The notes beneath the pieces were generated by a model. It did no database searches. It was not told where the DNA came from and worked only from the letters and a program-made list of their open reading frames with translations. Positions 894 through 4,852 of a stretch of 5,001 nucleotides of DNA are shown here, in pieces. The stretch is from the IMG/VR virus record IMGVR_UViG_2651869785_000016. The stretch is one strand, 5' to 3'. The DNA is from a virus. Its lineage: Duplodnaviria > Heunggongvirae > Uroviricota > Caudoviricetes. The translations under genes and the position numbers were made by a program. Position 1 is the stretch's first letter, and the number at the start of each line of letters is the position of its first letter.

Positions 894-970
894 TGGCGCG
901 TTGTACTGGATTCGAACCAGTGACCGGTTGCTTAGAAGGCAATTGCTCTGTCCGGCTGAGCTAACAACGC
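894..970 (-). tRNA. argO: tRNA-Arg, anticodon UCU (77 nt, CCA encoded)
   Basis: Reverse complement folds as a cloverleaf: acceptor GCGTTGT/ACAACGC, D-arm GCTC...GAGC, anticodon arm ATTGC-CTTCTAA-GCAAC, T-arm ACTGG-TTCGAAT-CCAGT, discriminator G, CCA. Symbol assigned by position in the recalled phage ileZ-argN-argO order. Confidence 0.85.
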
Positions 971-983
971 AGGGTACAGATAA

Positions 984-1060
984 TGGACCGCCATCGAGGA
1001 CTCGAACCCCGCGCAACCAGCTTCGAAGGCTGGCGCTCTTTCCTGATGAGCTAATGGCGG
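984..1060 (-). tRNA. argN: tRNA-Arg, anticodon UCG (77 nt, CCA encoded)
   Basis: Reverse complement: acceptor CCGCCAT/ATGGCGG, D-arm GCTC...GAGC, anticodon arm CCAGC-CTTCGAA-GCTGG, T-arm CGGGG-TTCGAGT-CCTCG, discriminator U, CCA. Symbol by position in the recalled phage trio. Confidence 0.85.
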
Positions 1061-1067
1061 TATGTAA

Positions 1068-1143
1068 TGGTGGCCCTTGCTGGATTTGAACCAGCGACCT
1101 GGCGATTATGAGTCGCTCGCTCTCACCACTGAGCCAAAGGGCC
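1068..1143 (-). tRNA. ileZ: tRNA with CAU anticodon (76 nt): tRNA-Ile2 (lysidine-type, AUA-reading) or tRNA-Met
   Basis: Reverse complement: acceptor GGCCCTT/AAGGGCC, D-arm GCTC...GAGC, anticodon arm AGCGA-CTCATAA-TCGCC, T-arm GCTGG-TTCAAAT-CCAGC, discriminator A, CCA. Ile versus Met cannot be decided from the anticodon alone; the ileZ symbol is by analogy with the phage trio. Confidence 0.8.
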
Positions 1144-1183: not shown

Positions 1184-1462
1184 TCATCCGTTCTGGCTGA
1201 CTAAATCCTGAACTTCCCTGACCGTCTGCTCAAAACGTTCAGTCTCCAGCTCAACACCAGTTGCACGACGTCCCAGCGCCATCGCTGCTTTGACTGTCGA
1301 ACCCGACCCCATGAAGAAATCTGCAACCAGGTCACCCGGACGACTGCTCGCGCTGATTATCTGCTGCAGCATTTCTGCCGGTTTTTCGCACGGATGTTTC
1401 CCGGGATAGAACTGCACCAGTTTATGCGTCCAGACATCGGTATACGGCACCTGCGCCGTCAC
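1184..1462 (-). pseudogene. Remnant of an N6-adenine/N4-cytosine DNA methyltransferase (PF01555-like, C-terminal half only)
   Basis: Product contains the HPxxKP-like motif (HPCEKP) and the AdoMet motif DFFMGSGST but no DPPY catalytic motif. The ORF begins at a GTG; the frame stays open upstream to 1543 with no ATG and runs through the terminator hairpin. The N-terminal half would have to lie where the AT-rich cassette now sits. Confidence 0.6.
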
Positions 1463-1590: not shown

Positions 1591-1619
1591 TTGCGTACGC
1601 GTTAGCATTTTCGTAAAAT
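1591..1619 (+). promoter_or_regulatory. Candidate sigma70 promoter for the cassette operon
   Basis: -35 TTGCGT (1591-1596), 17-nt spacer, -10 TAAAAT (1614-1619), predicted start about 25 nt upstream of the ATG at 1651. Weak -35; motif-level call only. Confidence 0.3.
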
Positions 1620-1650: not shown

Positions 1651-3441
1651 ATGAGCACAGAATTAAAACTAAAGAAAATTATGGCATCGTCTAAAATTGA
1701 GCCATTTATTAGACATATTCGTTTTCCTTTTTTTAAAAACCTTGCAGAGGGTAGCAAGATTGATTTTGAGTATCCAATTACAGCATTAGTTGGTCAAAAC
1801 GGAACCAATAAAAGTTCTGTTTTAAGAGCCCTATTCGGTTCTCCAAACAACTATTCTCTGGGTAGCTTATGGTTTTCTACAGATGTAGATGAGATTAAAG
1901 ATGGTGGTCGTTCTAGATTTATTTATGGATATTATGACAAAGCTACTGATTCAATTGTTGAAGTAATTAAAACTCGAATCTCTAAAGAAAATGATCCTGA
2001 TTACTGGGAACCATCCAGACCATTAAAATCCGACAACATGGCTCCAATGCCTAGCACAAAAATCTCAACCAATCAACTAAGGACTAGGTGGAAAGCTATT
2101 GACAAAAATGTAATATATTTAGATTTCAGAGCAACTATCAGTGCATTTGATAAGTTCTTTTATCATTCTGATTTTCATACATACCCTAAGAAAGATTATC
2201 TTAGAAAACGCAGTCAGATGCTAAAAGACATTATAGATAACGATCTTAAAAAATATCAACCTCATAAAGGAAAAAAAGACAAGCTATTTGTTAACACTTT
2301 ATTAGAAAAAAGTAAGGTAGAGGCAATCAGCAAGATTTTAGGTCGCAAATACACAAGCATCCGCCTTATTGAACATAGCTTATTCACTAATGACAAAGCT
2401 CCCACAATTATTCTTCAATCAGAAAACTTAAAATATTCTGAAGCTTTCGCAGGCAGTGGGGAATTTGCTGTATCTATATTAGTGCATAAACTAATGGATA
2501 GCCCTGATGCATCTTTAATTCTGCTAGATGAACCTGAAGTATCACTTCACCCTTCTGCTCAATGTCAATTGATGGAATTTTTATCAGAACAAGCACTTAA
2601 AAAGAAACATCAAATTGTCATATCCACACATTCATCAACAATAGTAAAAGACTTGCCTAAAAATGCCATAAAATTATTCTGTCTGAATGATAAAATAGGA
2701 AAGGTTGATGTTCTTCAAAATGTCAGTCCAGAAGAATCTTTCTTTATTCTTGGTGAACGCATTGATAAAAGAACCGTTATTGTAGAAGATCGGTTAGCGA
2801 AGAGGTTTGTAGAAAAGGCGCTTAAAGCGGGTGGTGAAGCATTATTAAACTCCTTCGAAGTAAAACATGTTCCTGGAGGAGCGGGAAGTATTCTTCAAAC
2901 TTTGGCTGTGCCTTTATGTGTTGCCAATGTTAAAAACGTTATTTTCTTATTAGATGGTGACCAATCGAGAACTGATGATTATCCAACTTCTGATTCCATA
3001 CCAGAAAATCAAAACACAAACCTTCAAAACATCATAAAAGAAATAACCAATCAAGATATAAAATTTAGTTGTGATGGTTCTAATGGCTCATCAAATAACA
3101 ATCAAAAATACAAAATGCAAAGAAATTTTATCGATTTCATCCACGATAAAATTGCTTTTCTTCCTGTTTATACTCCTGAAGCATTTCTTATTGAGAATGT
3201 TCATGGTGATTATAAAGAATATAAAGATCAAATCCCCAAAAACATTCAAGATGCTAAAGAAATCACCAAAGAACTTTGTAAGTTAGACACAGGGTTGGAG
3301 AACGTTACCAGTGACGATATCTTTGAAACACAAATCAGAATTCTTAATAAAATACCAAATAATCATGAAGTGTTAACAAAAACTCGAGAGTTGCTGCAAA
3401 TCTTTTTAGATAATGATACTATCAGACCAAGAGTGAGGTAG
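1651..3441 (+). CDS. ABC-type ATPase (AAA_21/AAA_15-like) fused to a C-terminal Toprim-like nuclease domain; OLD-family/PARIS-like defence protein, 596 aa
   Basis: Long ORF in AT-rich DNA. P-loop GQNGTNKSS (res 48-56), ABC-signature-like AGSGEFAVSIL, Walker B with D-loop LILLDEPEVSLHP (D293/E294), H-loop ISTHS (H327). C-terminal Toprim hallmarks: acidic TVIVEDR (E379) and FLLDGDQS (D435/D437) about 56 residues later. No Shine-Dalgarno at 1651; ATG at 1681 (M11) is an alternative start. Domain calls are by motif recognition, not a search. Confidence 0.8.
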   Translation: MSTELKLKKIMASSKIEPFIRHIRFPFFKNLAEGSKIDFEYPITALVGQNGTNKSSVLRALFGSPNNYSLGSLWFSTDVDEIKDGGRSRFIYGYYDKATDSIVEVIKTRISKENDPDYWEPSRPLKSDNMAPMPSTKISTNQLRTRWKAIDKNVIYLDFRATISAFDKFFYHSDFHTYPKKDYLRKRSQMLKDIIDNDLKKYQPHKGKKDKLFVNTLLEKSKVEAISKILGRKYTSIRLIEHSLFTNDKAPTIILQSENLKYSEAFAGSGEFAVSILVHKLMDSPDASLILLDEPEVSLHPSAQCQLMEFLSEQALKKKHQIVISTHSSTIVKDLPKNAIKLFCLNDKIGKVDVLQNVSPEESFFILGERIDKRTVIVEDRLAKRFVEKALKAGGEALLNSFEVKHVPGGAGSILQTLAVPLCVANVKNVIFLLDGDQSRTDDYPTSDSIPENQNTNLQNIIKEITNQDIKFSCDGSNGSSNNNQKYKMQRNFIDFIHDKIAFLPVYTPEAFLIENVHGDYKEYKDQIPKNIQDAKEITKELCKLDTGLENVTSDDIFETQIRILNKIPNNHEVLTKTRELLQIFLDNDTIRPRVR

Positions 3442-3444
3442 ATA

Positions 3445-4485
3445 ATGGCTAAAAAGATACACGTTTACGATTTCTTTTCCGGCTGCGGCGGAACCAGTGT
3501 AGGCCTAAAAGCGGTGGGAATGGAAATTATTTTCGGTTTAGATATTGATCTAGATTCCGCTAACACCTTTAAAATGAATAATCCATTTGCACATTTTATC
3601 AATGGTGATATCAAAGATACACACGTTGAGGAAATTAAGCATCTGGTTTGTGCGTCAACACAAAGCAAAGCTCTAACCCTATTTTGTGGTTGTGCTCCAT
3701 GTCAACCATTCTCGAAACAAAATAAAATACGGAACGAGGATGATCCGAGAAAAGATCTGCTTACTGAGTTTGCACGGTTTGTCTCTTATTATACGCCAGA
3801 CTTTGTACTGGTAGAGAATGTACCAGGAATCCAAAATGTCGATATTAACAATGGAAATTTCCAGAAATTTCTTGAGGTTTTAGCACATCATCACTACAAC
3901 GTTGATTTTGGTGTGATTCCTGCGTTGTGGTTCGGGGTTCCTCAAACACGTGAACGTTTTGTTTTACTGGCGTCAAAACACACGAATATTAAGCTTCCAT
4001 CACAAACTCATGATGGGTTAAAAACTCCGTATGCAACTGTCAGAGACTGGATCGGCGGATTACCTCCTATTGCTGCCGGTGAAACTCATAAAGATGTTAT
4101 GGATCATACAGCAGCCAAACTATCTGATCTAAATATTAAACGTATTAAAGCGACTCCTGAGGGAAAAGGTAGAGAATCTTGGCCTGAAGAACTTATACTA
4201 AAATGCCATAAAAAATATAAAGGGCATACTGATGTTTATGGACGGCTTTCTTGGGACAAACCAGCAAGTGGATTAACAACTAGATGTATAAGCTATTCGA
4301 ATGGACGTTTCGGACATCCAGAGCAAGATAGGGCTATTTCTGTTAGAGAGGCTGCGTTATTACAGACTTTCCCATTAGACTATTCCTTCACAGGCTCTTT
4401 AGTCTCGAAAGCCAAACAGATAGGGAATGCAGTCCCTCCCAAGATGGCTGAAGCTCTTGGAAGGGCTATCATCGCATCACTTTAA
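3445..4485 (+). CDS. DNA (cytosine-5)-methyltransferase, Dcm/M.HhaI-like, 346 aa
   Basis: Canonical m5C-MTase motifs in standard order: I DFFSGCGG (res 9-16), IV GCAPCQPFS with catalytic Cys86, VI ENV (124-126), VIII QTRERF (167-172), variable target-recognition region, IX REAALLQTFPLDY (301-313), X GNAVPP (327-332). GAGG Shine-Dalgarno 6 nt upstream, inside the 3' end of the upstream gene; 3-nt intergenic gap indicates translational coupling. Confidence 0.9.
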   Translation: MAKKIHVYDFFSGCGGTSVGLKAVGMEIIFGLDIDLDSANTFKMNNPFAHFINGDIKDTHVEEIKHLVCASTQSKALTLFCGCAPCQPFSKQNKIRNEDDPRKDLLTEFARFVSYYTPDFVLVENVPGIQNVDINNGNFQKFLEVLAHHHYNVDFGVIPALWFGVPQTRERFVLLASKHTNIKLPSQTHDGLKTPYATVRDWIGGLPPIAAGETHKDVMDHTAAKLSDLNIKRIKATPEGKGRESWPEELILKCHKKYKGHTDVYGRLSWDKPASGLTTRCISYSNGRFGHPEQDRAISVREAALLQTFPLDYSFTGSLVSKAKQIGNAVPPKMAEALGRAIIASL

Positions 4486-4487
4486 AA

Positions 4488-4509
4488 GCGGAGCCCTAGA
4501 GGGCTTCGC
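4488..4509. terminator. Convergent hairpin between the MTase and Q 3' ends; plausible terminator mainly for minus-strand (Q) transcripts
   Basis: GCGGAGCCC-TAGA-GGGCTTCGC: 9-bp stem with one G-U pair and a 4-nt loop, starting 3 nt after the MTase stop and containing the Q stop codon (4496-4498). The minus-strand RNA has UUUU immediately after the stem; the plus-strand RNA has an A-rich tail, so it is weak in that direction. Confidence 0.4.
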
Positions 4510-4852
4510 CTAACAATAATAGAATACCTGATATAAACCCTATAGCTCCCTGAAGCTCTTTTCTAATTGCTCCATCAGAGCATTTTCTTTTCTTAGCAAT
4601 GGTGCGTAATGAGATACCAATCACAAAATGAGCAATGATCAGCTCATATTCTTCTGGTTTATACTTCCGCAGGCGGGCGACACAGCCATCAATCATGATG
4701 CCTTCATCATCATCGCACTGAATCCGGGACTTTCTGCCATGAGGTAAAAGCCCCTTGAAGCCAGCGGCTACCGGTTGCCAATCCACACCACTGTTCTCTG
4801 CCGCAGCCCACGCTCCCCAACGGTCTAATACTTCATACATATCACACATCAA
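4496..4852 (-). CDS. Q: Phage late-gene antitermination protein Q (QuuD-like family), 118 aa
   Basis: Product has the LDRWGAWAA...AAGFKGL...KSRIQCDDDE...GCVARL...CSDGAIRKELQ pattern I recall from E. coli prophage Q/QuuD antiterminators. GGAG Shine-Dalgarno about 8 nt upstream of the ATG. The C-terminus (...GILLLLGEAL) ends earlier than I recall for QuuD and abuts the cassette junction. Confidence 0.75.
   Translation of the reverse strand: MMCDMYEVLDRWGAWAAAENSGVDWQPVAAGFKGLLPHGRKSRIQCDDDEGIMIDGCVARLRKYKPEEYELIIAHFVIGISLRTIAKKRKCSDGAIRKELQGAIGFISGILLLLGEAL

Follow-up and report, generated by a model that had tools for sequence, protein, structure and literature searches.

A prophage-borne pair of an ABC-ATPase/Toprim nuclease and a C5-cytosine methyltransferase as a probable restriction-modification-like system

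Two adjacent genes in a 5,001-nt stretch of DNA (the window; IMG/VR virus record IMGVR_UViG_2651869785_000016), which is part of a lambdoid Escherichia coli prophage, probably constitute an uncharacterised restriction-modification (R-M)-like anti-phage system that is conserved as a pair across phyla and in prophages. The first gene encodes a nuclease with an ABC ATPase and a Toprim domain, and the second encodes a C5-cytosine (m5C) DNA methyltransferase (MTase). The identities of the domains, the intactness of the catalytic sites, the near-obligate one-way linkage of the nuclease to the MTase and the carriage of the pair by prophages are established in this work. The cassette is robust, widespread and absent from the catalogues of the libraries searched, yet it is made of familiar parts. 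We propose, with a probability of about 0.5, that the pair is an ATP-dependent, methylation-protected restriction system, the restriction subunit of which is an ABC-ATPase/Toprim nuclease of the OLD superfamily. That unmethylated DNA is the substrate, that methylation protects from the nuclease, that the nuclease and the MTase interact and that the pair confers a defence phenotype are inferred. The initial annotation of the window had regarded the two genes as a module with R-M-like logic. The domain calls, the coupling of the genes and their location in a hotspot speak for this interpretation, of which the restriction mechanism is the conjectural part.

Linkage of the nuclease to a C5-cytosine methyltransferase

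The linkage of the two genes was assessed in 80 genome loci, taken from one genome per species and containing a nuclease homologue with 37-60% identity, and in 62 viral loci on IMG/VR contigs, 59 of which were evaluable. The genome loci span the Gamma-, Beta- and Alphaproteobacteria, Actinomycetota, Bacteroidota, Bacillota, Acidobacteriota, Myxococcota, Nitrospirota and others. An m5C MTase gene lies directly adjacent to the nuclease gene on the same strand in 54 of the 80 loci, downstream in 42 and upstream in 12, typically at a spacing of -8 to +39 nt. A same-strand MTase gene is present within 2.5 kb in a further 15 loci; five loci have one approximately 4.6 kb upstream, and one locus contains it on the opposite strand. 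Altogether, the MTase gene is found within approximately 5 kb in 75 of the 80 genome loci, or 75 of the 77 evaluable ones, the genes being cut by a contig end in three of the five loci where it was not found. Among the evaluable viral loci, the MTase gene is adjacent and co-oriented in 51 and adjacent and convergent in six. In one of the remaining two the nuclease gene is frameshifted and the MTase gene is 0.8 kb away; in the other the distance is 4.6 kb. The nuclease gene thus occurs without an MTase gene in only 2 of approximately 136 evaluable loci, and the arrangements observed include the nuclease gene first (R-M), the MTase gene first (M-R) and convergent pairs. Genes for m5C MTases are rare within a genome. 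Measured against this general rarity, on which the expectation rests, the adjacency seen in 54/80 genome and 57/59 viral loci is far beyond chance. Co-occurrence across phyla and in prophages (75/80 genome loci, 59/59 viral loci) demonstrates that the linkage assumed from the window alone is conserved.

The nuclease family is large. A word-indexed search, in which 8,000 candidates were scored, returned 2,205 matches, and an exhaustive search with a cut-off of E <=1e-30 yielded approximately 523 clusters at 50% identity. It is all but missing from a set of 72,556 plasmids. Besides the MTase, no third broadly conserved neighbour gene was detected in 105 dereplicated groups of loci, and therefore the two genes are considered to be sufficient. 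The most frequent other neighbours are a Vsr gene (11 groups), an upstream S24 repressor gene (approximately 11), R.HpaII (6) and genes of GHKL/receiver type (a few). In approximately 80% of the dereplicated loci, a lone MTase without a restriction enzyme is the only conserved partner.

The linkage was also viewed from the side of the MTase. Metagenome contigs were scanned with a profile made from the partner MTases, and the best 80 loci, encoding proteins with 40-67% identity to the MTase of the window, were inspected. An ATPase-Toprim gene was found beside only 10 of them. In 47 of these 80 loci the MTase is accompanied by a protein of approximately 1,000 aa with HATPase_c_3/HEF_HK (GHKL) domains, often together with a Response_reg_2 protein, and in nine by a DUF262-like protein. 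The nuclease almost never occurs without the MTase, whereas only these 10 of the best 80 MTases of the clade have the nuclease. The genomic evidence therefore indicates a near-obligate one-way dependence, in which the nuclease needs the m5C MTase and the MTase does not need the nuclease. Decayed loci were observed as well: a truncated nuclease gene beside an intact MTase gene at three loci (L022, L136 and L140), and the reverse at one metagenome-assembled genome (L039).

The pairwise distances of the nucleases and of the MTases are correlated overall (r = 0.60; Mantel test, reached in 0 of 2,000 permutations), and within the main clade r is 0.86. Of the two proteins, the MTase is the slower to evolve (60-64% versus 35-42% identity), which is the usual relation of M to R. 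The asymmetry of the association, the pattern of decay, the correlated distances and the difference in rates are what one would expect to see in genomes if a toxic restriction component is kept together with a protective methylase. Partners have also been exchanged, since nucleases with 53-57% identity are paired with MTases that are just 31-35% identical. A region-wise correlation of distances revealed no part of the nuclease that co-varies preferentially with the target recognition domain (TRD) of the MTase (partial r 0.13-0.27). Because partners are swapped and no region co-varies with the TRD, it is unlikely that the nuclease reads the sequence of the MTase unaided. We infer that the nuclease itself reads no DNA sequence and that self is distinguished from non-self through the MTase or the methylation state.

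The two proteins and their relation to known systems

The second gene of the cassette encodes a complete MTase. Its product matches PF00145 (3.3e-59, residues 6-343), TIGR00675 dcm (8.6e-42) and the PADLOC model MTase_II (6.8e-91), and motifs I, IV, VI, VIII, IX and X are intact. The sequences FSGCGG (aa 11-16), PCQ (C86), ENV (124-126), QxRxR (167-171) and GNAVP (327-331) are invariant among the partner MTases. Comparison of the TRDs, from which the target sequence itself is unreadable, shows one architecture common to most of the partners. The initial reading of a complete Dcm-like m5C MTase that begins 3 nt behind the stop codon of the nuclease gene and has its ribosome-binding site in the 3′ end of the nuclease gene, is confirmed by the coordinates, the full-length PF00145 match and the GAGG at 3435-3438. 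Translational coupling, which had been suggested too, holds for the window, where the GAGG lies inside nuclease codons; it does not hold as a trait of the family, in which MTase-first and convergent arrangements occur.

The first gene encodes a protein with the traits of the OLD superfamily, namely an N-terminal ABC ATPase with Walker A, signature, Walker B and H-loop motifs and, at the C-terminus, a Toprim domain with a glutamate and a DxD motif. The residues K54, S269-G270-E271, D293/E294, H327, E379 and D435/D437 are retained in all 123 unique full-length homologues and also in 21 diverse homologues, so that the ABC-ATPase and Toprim-like motifs pointed out from the sequence alone proved to be real. 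This complete retention points to strict selection on both predicted active sites, the ATPase and the Toprim nuclease. The most variable part of the protein is the helical extension that follows the Toprim core. The start codon at 1651 is favoured over the alternative M11, because L7 is invariant across the homologues. The full-length AF2 model has a pLDDT of 83.7, and the ABC head resembles those of RecF, RecN and Rad50.

In the profile searches, Pfam matches are confined to the ATPase part of the protein (AAA_15, AAA_21, SMC_N), NCBIfam gave no match above its cut-offs, and PHROGs assigns the protein to phrog_3940 of "unknown function". The best PADLOC match is HEC-04 (PDLC04149, 1.9e-36), which covers query residues 209-470 and model positions 155-386 of 494. 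The second is the effector ATPase-Toprim_I-B of retrons (1.1e-24, residues 42-484). Matches to AriA, PtuA, GajA and Old are weaker and limited to the Walker B region: the Walker B stretch of the nuclease aligns to that of OLD, AriA and PtuA, the similarity to the Old and GajA profiles extends over approximately 50-70 residues around it, and the AriA profiles match at 3e-16 in the ATPase only. No restriction endonuclease (REase) family was matched in Pfam, NCBIfam, PADLOC or PHROGs. Assignment of the nuclease to a known REase family, which would have refuted the earlier view, was rejected on this ground; the leading profile matches are HEC-04 (partial) and retron I-B.

HEC-04 (Hma-embedded candidate 4) is an anti-phage protein whose activity is lost when the Walker A lysine, E319, D375 or D377 is mutated and whose over-expression is toxic (Payne et al. 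2024 preprint). HEC-04 and IbfA resemble the nuclease in that a single chain joins an ABC ATPase to a C-terminal Toprim domain; the spacing of 56/58 residues from the catalytic glutamate to the DxD motif equals that of E319/D375/D377 in HEC-04. They differ from it in the N-terminal 200 residues, including the conserved insert, and in the C-terminal 130 residues, which are specific to the nuclease family. HEC-04 and IbfA have approximately 500-520 aa, are plasmid-borne or Hma-embedded and act alone, whereas members of the nuclease family have approximately 590-610 aa, are chromosomal or prophage-borne and nearly always have an m5C MTase partner. These two proteins are the closest characterised relatives, and only distant ones. 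Membership of the nuclease in the HEC-04/IbfA group was rejected, since the profile is covered only in part and tblastn (E <1e-6) against the 72,556 plasmids showed no similarity to the IbfA of IncI plasmids. The label "OLD/PARIS-like" given initially is appropriate at the level of the ABC-ATPase/Toprim superfamily; the nearest characterised relative is HEC-04/IbfA and not OLD or PARIS proper.

OLD nucleases have been classified by their context into class 1 (single gene, such as P2 Old and Thermus OLD), class 2 (with a UvrD-like helicase, Gabija), class 3 (retron) and class 4 (PARIS). None of these classes accommodates the nuclease. Class 1 was rejected owing to the conserved MTase partner in 75 of the 77 evaluable genome loci and in all 59 evaluable viral loci. 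Against class 2 (Gabija GajA) stand the absence of a helicase gene from the window and from the recurrent neighbours and a match of the GajA profiles to only approximately 70 residues. For class 3 (retron I-B, e.g. Eco8), neither a reverse transcriptase ORF nor a retron non-coding RNA was found in the window, nor is either among the conserved neighbours. Class 4 does not apply, as the ABC and Toprim parts are fused in one 596-aa chain, in contrast to the separate AriA and DUF4435 AriB of PARIS. The literature on OLD classes 1-4 mentions no methyltransferase partner, and among the articles searched, those that cite REBASE together with restriction endonucleases or m5C make no mention of Toprim. 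This accords with the initial statement that ATPase-Toprim proteins had not been paired with a modification methyltransferase, the classes comprising helicase, retron, PARIS and single-gene contexts only. No pair of an m5C MTase and an ABC-Toprim protein is described in the literature searched, although there may be an earlier computational mention elsewhere, and PADLOC-DB v2 (2023), Pfam, NCBIfam and PHROGs contain no dedicated model for it. The term "undescribed" is accordingly justified with respect to these four libraries; with respect to prior computational reports it is not fully certifiable.

The pair was also compared with the established types of R-M systems. It is like them in the linkage of a nuclease to an MTase, the one-way dependence, the slower evolution of the MTase, the occurrence of all orientations, the mobility and the occasional presence of Vsr, and the possession of an ATPase by the nuclease subunit recalls Types I and III. 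Type II REases are ATP-free, sequence-reading enzymes, mostly with PD-(D/E)XK, HNH, GIY-YIG or PLD folds. Membership in Type II was rejected on account of the ABC ATPase and Toprim domains, the lack of a match to any REase family and the lack of a region that co-varies with the TRD. In Type III systems, Res combines an SF2 helicase with a PD-(D/E)XK nuclease and Mod is an N6-adenine/N4-cytosine MTase, whereas the cassette combines ABC and Toprim domains with a C5-MTase. Type III membership was therefore dismissed as well, and the resemblance is confined to the proposed logic, in which Res depends on Mod.

A "two-component-like" system of a C5-MTase, a GHKL (HEF_HK) protein and a Response_reg_2 protein has been reported (Bellieny-Rabelo et al. 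2021), with no mention of an ATPase-Toprim partner. Its MTase belongs to the same clade as that of the window and accounts for the 47 of the best 80 metagenome loci described above; the window contains neither a GHKL nor a receiver gene. In four loci (L068, positions 257-8180, L072, L074 and L081), a GHKL/receiver module, the ATPase-Toprim gene and Vsr are present in one operon. There, the ATPase-Toprim gene, followed by Vsr, takes the place of the nuclease in a cluster with MTase, GHKL and receiver genes, in a manner similar to Ambrosia. Ambrosia (2025 preprint) is a cluster of MTase, HATPase, REC and nuclease genes that functions as an R-M-like defence; it contains an N6-adenine MTase and an HNH nuclease, unlike the C5-MTase and ATPase-Toprim nuclease considered here.

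Proposed mode of action and alternative explanations

We propose that the two genes belong together as a single module, conserved and horizontally mobile, which would act like an R-M system with an unusual restriction subunit. The MTase would mark the DNA of the host and of the resident prophage. The ABC head is expected to bind and hydrolyse ATP, probably dimerising on nucleic acid as the heads of SMC, Rad50 and OLD do, and may gate the C-terminal two-metal Toprim nuclease, by which incoming unmarked DNA would be attacked. For the distinction of self and non-self, the nuclease would rely on the MTase or on the methylation state, as Type III Res relies on Mod. A cassette located beside Q would protect the lysogen against other phages. 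It is the methyl mark, and not a protein complex alone, that appears to matter, because the dependence is specifically on the C5 type and the catalytic motifs of the MTase are invariant.

Several observations weigh against this interpretation. Two loci with adequate flanks, L048 (5941-7752) and L082 (4530-6299), contain no m5C MTase gene within approximately 6 kb. In the window the nuclease gene comes first and the MTase gene is coupled behind it, an arrangement with no evident delay of restriction on entering a new host. The absence of a variable DNA-reading region (partial r <=0.27) leaves the choice of target unexplained. HEC-04 and IbfA defend as single genes without a cognate methylase, and IbfA, which is encoded by the IncI plasmids R64/pUA1135, looks abortive. 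AriB cuts tRNA and not DNA, as does P2 Old according to a 2026 preprint. Finally, a classical REase is co-present in approximately 10 of the 80 genome loci, so that the ATPase-Toprim protein is dispensable as a restriction enzyme there. Of the two loci named above, L082 has a serine-recombinase-like gene as a neighbour, and an opposite-strand Response_reg_2 gene lies next to L048.

Some of these points would be accommodated by a methylase-coupled abortive-infection sensor of the PrrC/PARIS type, which we regard as rather unlikely but as the main competitor. The ABC-Toprim protein would be a latent toxin, perhaps a tRNase or a non-specific nickase, that is checked by, or monitors, the MTase or an m5C R-M activity. 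It would be released once a phage blocks methylation or exceeds its capacity, for instance by means of an anti-restriction protein or a SAM hydrolase or by flooding the cell with unmethylated DNA. The outcome would be death or arrest of the infected cell in place of selective cutting of the phage DNA. ABC-Toprim proteins are known as back-up effectors in modification systems, as exemplified by PARIS sensing Ocr, by the OLD-ABC/Toprim protein in BREX and by HEC-04 in Hma. The abortive-like behaviour of IbfA, the tRNase activities of AriB and, by the preprint's account, P2 Old, and the absence of a variable DNA-reading region fit as well. A layout suggestive of a guard is seen in eight Bacteroidota loci (L054, L059, L060, L066, L075, L077, L079 and L080), where the nuclease is in a tight operon with a full HpaII R-M system: the MTase is of the HpaII type, with a different TRD architecture, and R.HpaII (PF09561, 5e-143) is encoded between the MTase and the nuclease with gene overlaps of 4 nt (e.g. 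L054, 2438-6530). An SmaI-like REase gene is located nearby in two Actinomycetota loci. In approximately 80% of the dereplicated loci, however, the lone MTase is all that could be guarded, and it is hard to see why a methylase on its own should be guarded. The dependence specifically on a C5-MTase in very different genomic backgrounds and the invariance of the MTase motifs also argue against such a sensor. As regards substrate and outcome, selective restriction and abortive infection both remain candidates.

It is improbable that the two genes are independent co-travelling morons, i.e. a stand-alone defence protein similar to HEC-04 or OLD class 1 and an epigenetic or anti-restriction methylase of phage or host that would shield the DNA of the element from other restriction systems, brought together by co-transfer. 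HEC-04 and IbfA do suffice as single genes, orphan methylases are common in phages, genes or remnants of N6-adenine methylases are present in this very prophage, and the MTase clade works with other partners. The adjacency has nevertheless been kept across many phyla at 37-60% identity in spite of changes in order and orientation and of the replacement of the MTase clade, and loci with the nuclease alone are exceedingly few (2 of approximately 136 evaluable). Very improbable is a role outside defence, as an accessory of m5C methylation comparable to Vsr, the classic companion of C5-methylases, or to RecF/RecR, an ABC ATPase with a Toprim protein, that might process stalled covalent MTase-DNA adducts or deamination damage: the exclusively C5-type partner, with its covalent intermediates and T:G mismatches, the rank of Vsr as the next most common neighbour (11 of 105 groups) and the RecF-, RecN- and Rad50-like head would suit it, but the family is patchy and mobile, lies in low-GC islands and is over-represented near defence-type modules and in the moron slots of prophages, the profiles that match it best all represent defence proteins, and most MTases of the clade do without the nuclease.

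If the methylation-protected restriction system proposed here is real, a widespread module (approximately 520 clusters at 50% identity, in many phyla and in prophages) joins the bacterial immune repertoire, and the scheme of OLD nucleases gains a methylase-linked class. The pair would provide a natural test of how ABC-Toprim proteins choose their targets, as the self signal, m5C, would be known, unlike in OLD, Gabija and HEC-04. It would also explain thousands of genes annotated as "ATP-dependent nuclease" or "AAA family ATPase" beside supposed orphan Dcm-like methylases. For E. coli, it would mean that a prophage hinders phage infection and the uptake of DNA in commensal and probiotic-type strains, with a bearing on phage therapy and strain engineering. 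More tentatively, and with some doubt on our part, the pair might be a new ATP-dependent R-M class and at the same time a fifth OLD class, in which the C5-MTase would both mark self and provide the target recognition for a non-specific ABC-Toprim nuclease. This would then be the first R-M type with an SMC/Rad50-like ATPase and a Toprim domain, as well as the first ATP-dependent one to be based on m5C.

Position of the cassette in the prophage

The window sequence is identical in eight of 5,426 complete genomes, those of strain G1/2 and seven others, and the exact nuclease protein is also encoded on several hundred draft contigs. Strains that carry the cassette include G1/2, C4 and A21. The features of the window are listed in Table 1. 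The cassette forms a low-GC island on the plus strand, with approximately 33-40% GC compared with approximately 53% in the flanks, and occupies the gap between the stop codon of the antiterminator gene Q and a conserved non-coding piece of phage DNA. In megablast searches this piece shows 89-97% identity to sequences in 23 phage records (lambdoid and Stx phages) and in several hundred E. coli genomes, and it probably belongs to the leader of the late operon or to a terminator where Q acts. The hairpin within it is strong, GC-rich and terminator-like, and is followed by a T-run on the strand of the late transcript.

Table 1. Coordinates of the cassette, its sequence motifs and the neighbouring features in the 5,001-nt window
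Feature	Position	Strand	Basis or remarks
Nuclease gene, ABC-ATPase/Toprim, 596 aa	1651..3441	+	ORF; RefSeq WP_231256136, annotated "ATP-dependent nuclease"
ABC ATPase head, ~aa 18-360, with highly conserved family-specific insert, ~aa 60-260	1702..2730	+	
Walker A / P-loop, G48-QNGTNK54-S55	1792..1815	+	G48 and K54 invariant in 123/123 homologues
ABC signature-like motif, Y262-SEAFAGSGEF-272	2434..2466	+	Y262, S269, G270 and E271 invariant in 123/123
Walker B and D-loop, L289-ILLDEPEVSLHP-301 (D293, E294)	2515..2553	+	D293 and E294 invariant in 123/123
H-loop histidine H327 (STHS)	2629..2631	+	invariant in 123/123
C-terminal Toprim domain and variable helical extension, aa 361-596	2731..3438	+	
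Toprim catalytic glutamate E379 with D380 (VEDxLA)	2785..2790	+	invariant in 123/123; spacing matches HEC-04 E319
Toprim metal-binding DxD, D435-G436-D437	2953..2961	+	invariant in 123/123
Shine-Dalgarno sequence GAGG of the MTase, 6 nt before ATG, within the final nuclease codons	3435..3438	+	sequence reading
C5-cytosine DNA methyltransferase gene, 346 aa	3445..4485	+	ORF; WP_047645442
Candidate cassette promoter, TTGCGT-17 nt-TAAAAT, weak -35, ~30 nt upstream of ATG	1591..1619	+	sequence reading
Antiterminator Q gene, convergent with the cassette, 10 nt between stops	4496..4852	-	PF06530, 8.8e-44; annotation
Left insert boundary, non-coding ~100-bp conserved phage piece	1512..1629	-	megablast; hairpin at 1545-1525
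N6/N4 DNA methylase remnant, C-terminal 92 aa only	1184..1462	-	PF01555; annotated pseudogene, N-terminus missing
tRNA cluster Ile2 (anticodon CAT), Arg (TCG), Arg (TCT)	894..1143	-	equivalent to ileZ-argN-argO upstream of stx in Stx phages
DUF968 gene		-	window annotation
TerB-family gene		-	beyond the tRNA cluster

The initial assignment of the site to a prophage hotspot is substantiated by the low-GC island between the Q stop codon and the conserved piece of approximately 100 bp and by different two-gene cassettes at this place in other phages. Other two-gene cassettes, likewise convergent with Q, fill the slot from Q to the conserved piece of the late region in Stx2a_1447 and vB_EcoS-569R4; they encode proteins of 343 and 179 aa (L227, 1771-3334, minus strand) and of 286 and 182 aa (L228, 2545-3940, plus strand), respectively. 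These proteins have no match in Pfam or PADLOC and belong to PHROGs of unknown function only (3482, 16807 and 2802). The alternative cassettes demonstrate the variability of the slot and otherwise neither strengthen nor weaken its designation as a defence hotspot. They are candidates for further unknown defence or moron modules of prophages. A diverged allele of the entire pair is present in the identical Q slot of other E. coli prophages, with a nuclease 64% and an MTase 66% identical to those of the window.

In yet other prophages, comprising approximately 11 dereplicated groups, the pair is located on the same strand directly downstream of a gene for an HTH and Peptidase_S24 repressor of the CI/LexA type. 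Examples of such repressor-adjacent positions are L131, 4624-5451, and L032, 4546-5454. This location suggests expression in the lysogen, and the placement of the pair in prophages in general, beside Q here and after a CI-like repressor elsewhere, implies the same. The place downstream of a CI-type repressor is that of rexAB in lambda.

The junction of the two genes reads GTG AGG TAG ATA ATG, in which the TAG at 3439-3441 is the nuclease stop codon and the ATG at 3445 is the start codon of the MTase. Both ORFs are in one frame and are parted only by TAG and ATA, so that read-through of the stop codon would give a nuclease-MTase fusion. The shared frame is probably coincidental, because the spacing in other members of the family differs (-8 to +39 nt). 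The candidate promoter at 1591..1619 was not returned by a consensus scan, which needs at least four of six matches per hexamer.

Among the remaining features, the tRNA cluster was considered in connection with a possible tRNase activity of the nuclease. This tie was rejected, since ileZ-argN-argO is also present in Stx2a_1447, which does not contain the cassette. At the position of the methylase remnant, related prophages (L003, L004 and L227) contain an intact version of the N6/N4 methylase gene, encoding approximately 350 aa. A partial Rfam match to the small RNA STnc100 (RF02076; 48.9 bits, compared with a gathering score of 47) is located at positions 1-65 on the minus strand, where it is cut by the edge of the window; it overlaps sequence that lies downstream of the TerB-family gene.

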